In this document: positions 6,001-9,000 of the stretch, one piece after another
Numbering within the stretch: position 1 is the first letter of the stretch
Layout of the letters: each line of letters starts with the position of its first letter
Virus record (IMG/VR): IMGVR_UViG_2671180433_000006
DNA length: 9,104 bases
Source: a virus
Lineage: Duplodnaviria > Heunggongvirae > Uroviricota > Caudoviricetes
Reading direction: 5' to 3' (one strand)
Position numbers: made by a program

Positions 6001-9000
6001 ACAGCGCCCCGTGTGGCAGGGCAATCCAGGTGAAACAAACATCCTGCCATCAGCAAGAATCAAGTACATACGTTCTCTGGATAGATGGAAAATCTATTGG
6101 ATGCGGAAGGATATGAAATGGCATCAGTACAGTACTGAACTTTCGCTGACTGATGCGCTTGAGCTTGTGCGTGCTGACCCGGATTGCTGCTTCTTCGGAT
6201 GAGTGAAGAGACGTTTGGATGATGGATGGTCGCAGAGATGCGGCCTGATTCTAAAATAGGATATAAAAAATGAGAATACTAGGTGTTAGAGCGGCGCCCA
6301 AAGTTACATCTTTTGTTGTATATTGCACTAATGAGTCTGCACTCAAATGTGTTGATGTTATTAAAATACCTTCGACCTTAGACACACCAGAAAAATTAAA
6401 GTATGTGAGAAATAACATCCTCGACATTCTTAATTTATATAATGTTGAATTAGCTGCCATACGCGTTACTGAATCAAACTCTGATAATCTTAGCATTGAC
6501 CGCCTTTATATAGAAGCTGTTATTCAAGAAGCATTTTCAAGCAGTGATGTAAGAAAATATTACACTATTAGAAAATCTGGCATGAAATCATCATTGAACC
6601 TAACAGAGATCGAGTATAAAGAAATATTGAAGTCACACCGCAATATAAATGGAATCGATAATTCTGGTTTTACAGCTGAAACAAATGAAGCTGTTTTGGC
6701 TGCACTATCTGCGGAGGTAAGGGGATGCTAACTCCATACAAAAGAGCTGATGTAGAATTCGAATGGATTAGTGATCTAGAAGAACAGGGTTGTTTTTCAA
6801 AAGTATATCTGGCTCATGACAGACACCTAGCTCATGACTTGGTGATTAAAGAAATAGAAAAAAAAGAAAACACTAACCACGACGACTACTTTAATGAAGC
6901 AAGGCTTCTCTATAAACATGCACATCCAAATATTGTGCAAGTTCAGTATGCTGCTCAATGTGAGAGCAATATCTATATAGCCATGCCATTTTATCATAAT
7001 GGTTCGCTAAACCAATTAATGAAAAAAAATAATCTTACAAGCAGGGAGATAATACGGTATTCCATTCAATTTTTAAGTGGACTTTATCATATACACTCAA
7101 AAGGTCTTATGCATTTTGATATAAAACCTAATAACATTATGATATCAAACAGAAATGAGGCCATGCTATCTGACTTTGGATTATCTCAGTTAGTCAATGA
7201 GGAATCGAGAGCTGCGCCTGAGTTTGGATATCATTTTCATGTGCCACCGGAATATTTTTCTTTATCAACAAATGATTATAATTTCACATATGACATATAT
7301 CAGGCAGGATTAACCATATATAGAATGTGTGTTGGACATGATAATTTTGAAAGAGAAAGATCTGCATTTAGCACGATTGAACAACTCAGAGAGTCGATAA
7401 TTAATGGCTGCTATCCATTAAAAGAGTATCCTCCCCATATACATAAAAAATTAATAACAATAGTGAACAAATGCATTCATGTAGATCCAAATGAAAGATA
7501 TCAATCCGTACTAGATGTACTAAACGATCTCTCAGCTATAAGTGATGGCGTTCTTGACTGGCGTCTACAGATGACGAAACCAACTAACGGCACATGCGAA
7601 TGGCAAAAAAAGTCTGGGGACGCTATACTGTCTATAGTTTTTGACGCAGAAAATTCGTCTACTACTGGTTTTCGTTTATACGATGATGGGCGGAAAAGGC
7701 GTGCTACGAACTTAACAATATCCTCAGGATGTACCCCTACAAAACTGTATAGGTTATTAAAGGATAACTGATCATGAAAAAGCGCGAGGAAGTAAGCAAG
7801 CTGCCTCGCAGACGTGATGCAGCATTAGCGGTTCCCTACAAAAAAGATGAGTTCATAAGCCCTTCTGATGACAAAAAATTTTCAAAGGCGAAAAGTTTTA
7901 CATCTACATCTCTAAAAGATAAATACTTTAAAATCTAGCCCGGCCTCAGCGCCGGGTTTTCTTTGCCTCACGTTCGCCCACCTAAAAAACATAACCAATT
8001 GTATTTATTGATGTAACTCGCTAAACCATGCAGTTATGATCCCTGCCGCATAACCTTCATCAGCCACATTTTCAAAAATAAATTTCCTTATATATCAGAA
8101 TCATACTTCGTAGAGTTAATAAATCACCAAAATTCGTACCAATAGTTCTTGATAATGTCGAACTATTGGTTCATTATTATCATCGTCAGCAGGACGCATT
8201 ACTCACCAGGTCGGTGAATATACAACGATTCGAATATGAATCTACGGCGCTGACAAAGCGCAATAACCAAAGTGAACTTTGGGGTGTGGTGAAGGGTTCA
8301 TGGACGGGAATATGTCGCACGTAAAGCGGCGAGGCCTGCGGGACTATTGCCGAATTGAAGTAGGCCGAAACAGGTCGAAATGGGTCTCCCACCTACCACA
8401 CCACCAAAGTTCATCAGGAGGTCTATATGACACGCAGAACTCAGTTCAAAGGCAATTCACGTTCTCGTCGTCGTGAGCGTTTAAAGGCAAAGGCATTAGC
8501 TAACGGCGTACTGGCCCGCGAAGAAGCAATAAGTTCAGAAGTATTACACCGCCCTACTCTAAGCAGAGCGCAGATTCAGGCTAAAGGTACTCACGAAACG
8601 CCTGAGCGCATAGAAGACGCTAAGCCAATTAAGTTCATGGCACAGGACGTGATCTGGCAACAGAAAGAATACAGACGCAATCTGGAGCGAGCGGCCATTG
8701 TGTACGCGAATGAGTTTGGACATAAGCAACCAGAAACTGGTGTATGTCTTCCAAACGTAGCCATTTACGCGGCAGGCTACCGGAAATCAAAACAACTGAC
8801 GGCGAGGTGACTTGTGTTGGTCGCCAGAAAATGAAATTAGGCAGCAAACCACTTATTTGAGGTGAGATATGACAAAATCATGGAGCGTACCTTTTCCTGA
8901 ATCAGAAACTGAACATGATGGAATGCCTGTTTTCTGGAGATTCCAGGCGACAGTTGAAGAAGATGGGATAAAAATATGAGGTAGCCTGAGTTTAACGGAC

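Follow-up and report, generated by a model that had tools for sequence, protein, structure and literature searches.

We analysed a 9,104-nucleotide stretch of DNA from a tailed phage (IMG/VR record IMGVR_UViG_2671180433_000006; hereafter the window), in which a first-pass annotation, made from the sequence alone, had placed a protein kinase gene with two small partner genes between cI and PL and proposed them as a candidate phage-exclusion module. Comparison with phage 933W (AF125520) gave 99.5% DNA identity over window positions 2800-8977, in a gap-free alignment, and the encoded kinase showed 0 differences in 348 amino acids (aa) from 933W Stk (AAD25427, AF125520). The segment is almost certainly the PRM-cI-L0084-L0083-stk-L0081-tM operon of a 933W-type Shiga-toxin (Stx) phage, and the kinase operon is an already known, characterised system (933W Stk), annotated since the 933W genome record. 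Since the kinase is identical to Stk, and published papers cite its exclusion of phage HK97, the proposed candidate is a known module.

The kinase lies in the repressor operon of a 933W-type phage

The 933W annotation was transferred by the ungapped register of the alignment (window position = L001 position + 2799). The features of the operon are as follows, with the letters A, K and S used below for the products of L0083, stk and L0081:

5058..5085 (+): PRM (pM), the maintenance promoter, which drives the operon in the lysogen and overlaps oR2/oR3; AF125520 annotation transferred by the ungapped mapping
5093..5800 (+): cI repressor, 235 aa, first gene of the operon; identical to 933W CI; Pfam HTH_3 and Peptidase_S24
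5861..6202 (+): L0084, DUF3024 protein, 113 aa, accessory and outside the conserved core; Pfam DUF3024 at 2.1e-31; 1 substitution relative to 933W
6270..6731 (+): L0083 (A), 153 aa, protein of RuvC fold whose active site is remodelled; obligate partner encoded upstream of the kinase
6725..7771 (+): stk (K), 348 aa; Hanks-type kinase (residues 1 to ~270) followed by a conserved C-terminal beta-meander/helix domain (270-348); 100% identity to 933W Stk
7774..7938 (+): L0081 (S), 54-aa basic protein, the conserved third cassette gene, assigned by position and shared motifs
7937..7967 (+): tM, intrinsic terminator that ends the PRM transcript; found by terminator scan and annotated tM/tRM in 933W and phi24B

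The CI, Stk, L0081 and N proteins are identical to those of 933W, and L0084 and L0083 each differ by 1 residue. In the 933W record the order is pM, cI, L0084, L0083, stk, L0081, tM, nutL, N, all of them annotated already, and the order from cI to tM is the same in the window. This is therefore the same protein in the same operon as in the 933W Stk system (Tyler & Friedman 2004; Friedman et al. 2011), with the same flanking cI, tM, OL/PL, nutL and N.

The three open reading frames (ORFs) called in the first-pass annotation, of 153, 348 and 54 aa, lie where they had been placed, and the ATGCTAA overlap of the first with the kinase start is correct. The overlap claimed between the 54-aa ORF and the kinase stop is absent: the TGA ends at 7771 and the ATG begins at 7774, leaving a 2-nucleotide (nt) spacer. 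The predicted intrinsic terminator is present, with a stem at 7937-7958 (8 pairs, 6 of them GC) followed by a T-tract, and matches 933W tM. The segment is also more AT-rich than its neighbours, as had been noticed, with a GC content of 35.6% in the cassette against 45.2% in cI, 49.2% in N and 46.2% in the rest of the window. Since OL1, OL2 and a PL-like promoter are found past tM, at about 8136-8177, the cassette does occupy the cI-to-PL slot. Note that a fourth ORF, L0084, between cI and the 153-aa ORF, had been overlooked.

The full cassette is present in 39 phage records and in 225 of 5426 complete E. coli genomes (~4%), mostly Shiga-toxin-producing (enterohaemorrhagic, EHEC) strains.

Published function of the kinase

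According to two citing papers, the tyrosine kinase of 933W shares a transcript with cI and makes HK97 superinfection of a 933W lysogen abortive (PMC3564112, PMC6356687). Stk is switched on by HK97 infection, having little or no activity in uninfected cells, and broad tyrosine phosphorylation follows, as stated in a third (PMC3681748). All three cite Friedman 2011 for Stk function. The reading of the locus as a lysogen-expressed exclusion or abortive-infection module was right, and according to citing papers (PMC3564112, PMC3681748) exclusion by the kinase had already been shown experimentally. A defence function of the cassette is highly likely.

As regards the other genes, cI, the DUF3024 gene, the RuvC-like gene and stk move together in phi24B transcriptomes (PMC10789677 Table 3), and phi24B lysogens express the DUF3024 and RuvC-like genes (PMC4651098). 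The searchable literature, which does not include the primary Stk papers, yielded no paper on the function of L0083 or L0081 or on the HK97 trigger, no description of the A-K-S partnership and no resolution of how Stk senses its trigger. The suggestion that the multi-gene arrangement might be undescribed holds in part: all the genes are annotated in the 933W GenBank record, and it is the roles of the partners that we did not find described.

Defence-finder tools give Stk the generic label PD-T4-6. A 2026 preprint on O157:H7 strains reports PD-T4-6 and PDC-S43 in one strain, a pair that may be this operon. Moreover, a 2024 paper (PMC11341870) does not recognise 933W Stk as a defence kinase, so current work on phage defence has passed it over.

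L0083, stk and L0081 form a mobile three-gene cassette

A profile scan with L0083, using one genome per species, recovered 39 loci from gamma-, beta- and alpha-Proteobacteria, Bacteroidota, Clostridia and Acidobacteriota. A tblastn search with L0083 also led to the Bacillus phages SPbetaL6 and SPbetaL7, where an Stk homologue (40% identity) lies directly downstream. Taking these 39 loci and the SPbeta locus together, an Stk homologue (35-57% identity) is found immediately 3' of L0083 and on the same strand in 40/40 loci. In the reverse search of IMG/VR, starting from the kinase, 124 relatives were obtained. Among the best 80, which were analysed, L0083 is upstream in all 76 loci with a full-length kinase and upstream room. 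Of the other 4, two have the kinase at a contig end (L055, L116), one has a kinase truncated by an IS1 end (L083) and one is a damaged 933W-type copy (L084), with a partial kinase match and with L0083 ~300 nt further upstream.

The junctions are tight. The stop of A overlaps the start of K in 27/37 loci, and in the others the two are at most 10 nt apart. A basic ORF of 50-68 aa follows the kinase stop at -29 to +28 nt, typically -4 to +2 nt, the one spacing exception being L031, in which the small ORF begins 88-112 nt beyond the stop. No complete locus lacks this ORF (present in 37/37 genome loci and 80/80 viral loci), and the genes outside the three all vary from locus to locus. In support of the first-pass annotation, which had grouped the 153-aa and 54-aa ORFs with the kinase, the three-gene order is kept in every complete locus examined. 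L0083-stk-L0081 is one mobile three-gene cassette, which retains its gene order and close junctions in different bacterial phyla as well as in a Bacillus phage. Plasmids of Klebsiella, Providencia, Mesorhizobium and Bacillus carry it too.

In SPbetaL7 (OQ921347; L004 3504-5262) the same cassette encodes proteins of 167, 350 and 60 aa, all three annotated as hypothetical, and adjoins a tyrosine-recombinase-like gene; it offers a Gram-positive model for testing the system. Two interrupted copies were also seen. In a 933W-like prophage (L083 1-600; IMG/VR UViG_2585427735_000018) an IS1 end abuts stk cut at residue 58, a natural insertional knock-out. In Pseudoalteromonas sp. ASV78 (L015 6462-7452) the kinase homologue is in two frames, with a break near residue 89, and is probably a decaying copy of the cassette.

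The cassette usually follows a prophage repressor directly or is embedded in a defence island. A cI-type repressor lies at most 2 genes upstream, on the same strand, in 62/77 viral loci. The repressors of the post-repressor loci (HTH_3 with or without Peptidase_S24) fall into 17 clusters with less than 50% identity between them, so phages that differ in immunity have repeatedly acquired the cassette in their post-repressor slot. Of the 36 loci in species-representative genomes, only 5-6 are behind a repressor. Other genomic neighbours include an OLD-family ATPase-TOPRIM gene, an McrB-like AAA and LlaJI pair, type I HsdM/HsdS and DUF4365.

Stk is an intact Hanks-type kinase

The first-pass annotation had reported a full set of Hanks motifs in the 348-aa ORF, and these were located: a remnant of the G-loop (EQGCFSKV, 20-27), VIK with K42, the catalytic loop HFDIKPNN (130-137, with D132 and N137), DFG (150-152) and PPE (174-176). 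The profile comparison with Pfam Pkinase (PF00069) that it had proposed gave E=2.2e-46 and 158.8 bits, against a cut-off of 31.7, and together with the complete catalytic set this places the protein in the Hanks-type family. The alignment to 933W Stk, left as a question of orthology, returned Stk itself (348/348). The residues K42, E58 (helix C), H130/D132/K134/N137, D150-F-G and P175-E176 show no variation across 37 homologues. Judged from these residues, Stk is a catalytically intact Hanks kinase.

The catalytic loop carries a Ser/Thr-like Lys at +2 and lacks the tyrosine-specific signature (HRDLAARN/HRDLRAAN). Tyler and Friedman reportedly described Stk in 2004 as a tyrosine kinase, going by the title of their paper. 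Because its loop is of the Ser/Thr type, yet tyrosine phosphorylation has been reported experimentally, Stk is best called a dual or atypical kinase. Tyr169, in the activation segment, is conserved in 35/37 homologues and is a candidate autophosphorylation site.

The best PADLOC match of Stk is Mad6 (6.7e-50), and the PD-T4-6 models match residues 20-276 (best E=1e-37); both are confined to the kinase domain. Among the NCBIfam models compared, none reached its cut-off (MAD6, 122 vs 460; PglW, 45 vs 990; PknB-PASTA, 122 vs 450). The C-terminal domain (270-348) was modelled with a mean predicted local distance difference test (pLDDT) score of 86.8. The Stk subfamily comprises 538 bacterial clusters at E<=1e-30, all of 340-353 aa. 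A eukaryotic origin of the kinase was rejected on the strength of these bacterial clusters and their uniform length.

The partners of the kinase

L0083 has a full RNase H-like RuvC fold, and the phi24B record labels it 'res, putative resolvase'. Its sequence is far from that of the RuvC Holliday-junction resolvase (12-15% identical). Against Pfam RuvC (PF02075) it scores 14.2 bits, below the gathering score of 22.2; no PADLOC, NCBIfam or Pfam model matched above threshold, and an L0083 profile run against PDB sequences retrieved no RuvC, only chance matches at E>0.3. By hhalign, the match to E. coli RuvC was poor (E 0.037, probability 1.4%), and this alignment therefore served for register only. 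In both weak alignments (Pfam and hhalign), R7 of L0083 falls on the first catalytic Asp of RuvC (Asp7). This Asp is essential in RuvC.

Conservation was assessed in 148 representatives of 50%-identity clusters from a library of 1.84 billion proteins, in which the L0083 family numbers 445 clusters at E<=1e-3. Position 7 is Arg in 140/141 and never Asp. Arg is also found at positions 47 and 78 (147/147 each) and Arg or Lys at position 65 in all, together with Glu at positions 68 (146/148), 82 (144/145), 87 (144/145) and 140 (127/131). In the 37-locus comparison, 11 positions are invariant. The RuvC tetrad Asp7-Glu66-Asp/His138-Asp141 is not reproduced: position 137 is variable, and only E68 and E140 are plausible equivalents. 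Because of this pattern, with Arg at position 7, L0083 lacks the canonical two-metal tetrad. It may be a pseudo-nuclease or a much-altered enzyme, perhaps still binding branched nucleic acid.

L0081 has 54 aa and a pI of 10.0, and no family in Pfam, NCBIfam or PADLOC corresponds to it. The small proteins share an MKK-rich N-terminus, an invariant Arg, usually in S/T-R, and a C-terminal G-(Y/F)-(I/F/L)-x-hydrophobic strand, a pattern that L0081 matches (…LPRRRDAAL…DKYFKI). Its ratio of non-synonymous to synonymous substitution rates (dN/dS) is ~0.2-0.4 against four relatives. A role as phospho-acceptor was considered for the C-terminal Tyr, which is conserved in the small protein; this was not upheld as a firm claim, since several clades have Phe, Arg or Lys there.

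Relation to other exclusion and defence systems

In phage lambda, Rex is a membrane-depolarising pair. RexAB resembles the present cassette in its slot, after cI and before the terminator and PL, in its lysogen-only expression from PRM and in the abortive exclusion of heterologous phages (PMC3564112), but has no sequence or fold relationship to it. Staphylococcal Stk2 and E. coli PD-T4-6 likewise use a Hanks-type kinase as abortive-infection effector; they are single genes, whereas kinases of the Stk subfamily possess a C-terminal domain of their own and invariably lie between A and S. Note that the PD-T4-6 hidden Markov models (HMMs; PADLOC / Vassallo 2022) match the kinase domain only, at 1e-37, and that the architecture here is one of three genes. 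MADS Mad6, BREX PglW and the Pf-prophage kinase module KKP are also kinases within multi-gene anti-phage systems, but no methyltransferase, phosphatase or second kinase lies near Stk, and the MAD6 and PglW scores are below cut-off.

A model for the three products, and its alternatives

The locus is known, and the original observation is real and was rightly interpreted; its residual interest is the under-studied tripartite A-K-S architecture. The best overall explanation, to which we give a probability of roughly 0.8, is that the known Stk operon is a mobile A-K-S cassette whose three products act together. A and S are quite probably functional partners of K, judging from their linkage and conservation, and A may tentatively be taken as the sensor. 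K would be the effector and would kill the cell, or arrest it, through mass phosphorylation. A, with its RuvC fold and lost canonical first catalytic Asp, would sense or regulate the response to a phage recombination or replication intermediate, or to a phage protein, and S would provide a second layer of regulation, as an inhibitor, an adaptor or a pseudo-substrate. Between them, A and S would hold the kinase off until infection.

The 2011 work of Friedman and colleagues reportedly tied Stk exclusion to HK97 gene 41. By RefSeq Gp numbering, gene 41 encodes an Erf-family single-strand annealing protein, and the gene between Gp40 and Gp43 (NC_002167 24175-24780; L125 2176-2781) matches Pfam ERF at 2.1e-44. 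The recombination protein of 933W itself is Bet (AF125520 annotation). A speculative but coherent reading is that a junction-binding pseudo-resolvase senses the recombinase of a foreign phage, such as the Erf-like protein of HK97, or the products of that recombinase. In its fullest form, with Stk as the effector of an undescribed, widespread tripartite anti-phage system in which an Arg-for-Asp pseudo-nuclease detects phage recombination intermediates or the recombinase and a ~55-aa basic peptide gates the kinase, the model would explain how HK97 turns Stk on; it is possible but doubtful.

Several observations weigh against three products acting together with A as the sensor. The sensor role of A is drawn from the fold, the loss of D7 and gene linkage only. 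S was matched by HMM in only 59/80 viral loci, the remainder being called by position and motif; the papers searched credit exclusion to Stk alone; and other defence kinases (Stk2, PD-T4-6) are single genes. Finally, E68, E82, E87 and E140 are conserved, so A could still be an enzyme. With these four acidic and four basic invariant residues on a full RuvC fold, and with nuclease effectors being common in defence systems, the roles might even be reversed: A would be an effector nuclease acting on phage or host DNA, and the kinase would sense infection and activate A by phosphorylation. We regard this as unlikely, since Arg replaces the RuvC-essential first Asp in nearly all A representatives, A stays below the Pfam RuvC gathering score, and the published phenotypes, as given in PMC3681748, are those of a kinase, namely its activation and the tyrosine phosphorylation that follows HK97 infection.

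The cassette might instead serve mainly the prophage, through lysogeny control, induction tuning or toxin-antitoxin-like addiction, with HK97 exclusion as a side effect. Its placement in repressor operons in most viral loci would fit, as would the modulation of induction by other post-cI genes such as 434 Hex (PMC3564112) and the prophage KKP kinase module, which governs both lysogeny and defence (PMC11341870). However, so few of the species-representative loci are behind a repressor, others adjoin restriction-modification, McrBC-like or OLD-family genes, and abortive infection of HK97 is the sole reported phenotype, all of which make this account very unlikely. Most improbable is that Stk acts alone and that L0083 and L0081 are unrelated hitch-hiking cargo or non-functional genes. 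Only Stk is named in the literature (PMC3681748, PMC6356687, PMC3564112), PADLOC would call the kinase as the single-gene system PD-T4-6, and L0081 belongs to no catalogued family. Against this, the two-way linkage is perfect in more than 110 loci from several phyla, with kinases down to 35% identity, the A/K junctions overlap, and the neighbours beyond the three genes all change. Moreover, both partners are under purifying selection, as indicated by the 11 invariant positions of A and the dN/dS of S (0.2-0.4).

The locus is a textbook-style prophage defence gene carried in a repressor operon. With their constant place on either side of the kinase, the two unstudied partners are concrete candidates for the missing sensor and regulator of Stk, and infection sensing becomes directly testable. 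The cassette comprises several hundred sequence clusters across phyla, in which the defence-finder models now in use recognise no more than a generic single-gene kinase.

L0084 and the remainder of the window

L0084 is a DUF3024 protein (Pfam, 108.9 bits against a gathering score of 24.9) and also matches the PADLOC candidate PDC-S43 (5e-42, positions 1-113 of 115). A PDC-S43-type defence role is a candidate only, and L0084 may be a second, independent lysogen-expressed defence gene. The DUF3024 gene is found together with the cassette in 933W-like and Proteus-like prophages or loci only. In Proteus penneri (L005 5555-5896) an L0084 homologue with 38% identity likewise lies between cI and the kinase cassette.

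Between tM and N, at 8136-8261 (+), the window carries OL2, OL1, the PL-like promoter (TTGATA-17-CATTAT, 8149-8177) and nutL. The 68-aa antisense ORF that overlaps nutL (8186-8392) is most likely spurious. Apart from the single residues in L0084 and L0083, the difference from 933W lies in the nin region to the right of gene P. Window positions 1-2799 do not align to 933W and encode a P63C-domain protein (123-1190, -), NinB (1354-1764, -) and 3 ORFs without a Pfam family. Since this part is unalignable, the phage is a mosaic in which another nin region is joined to a 933W immunity region.

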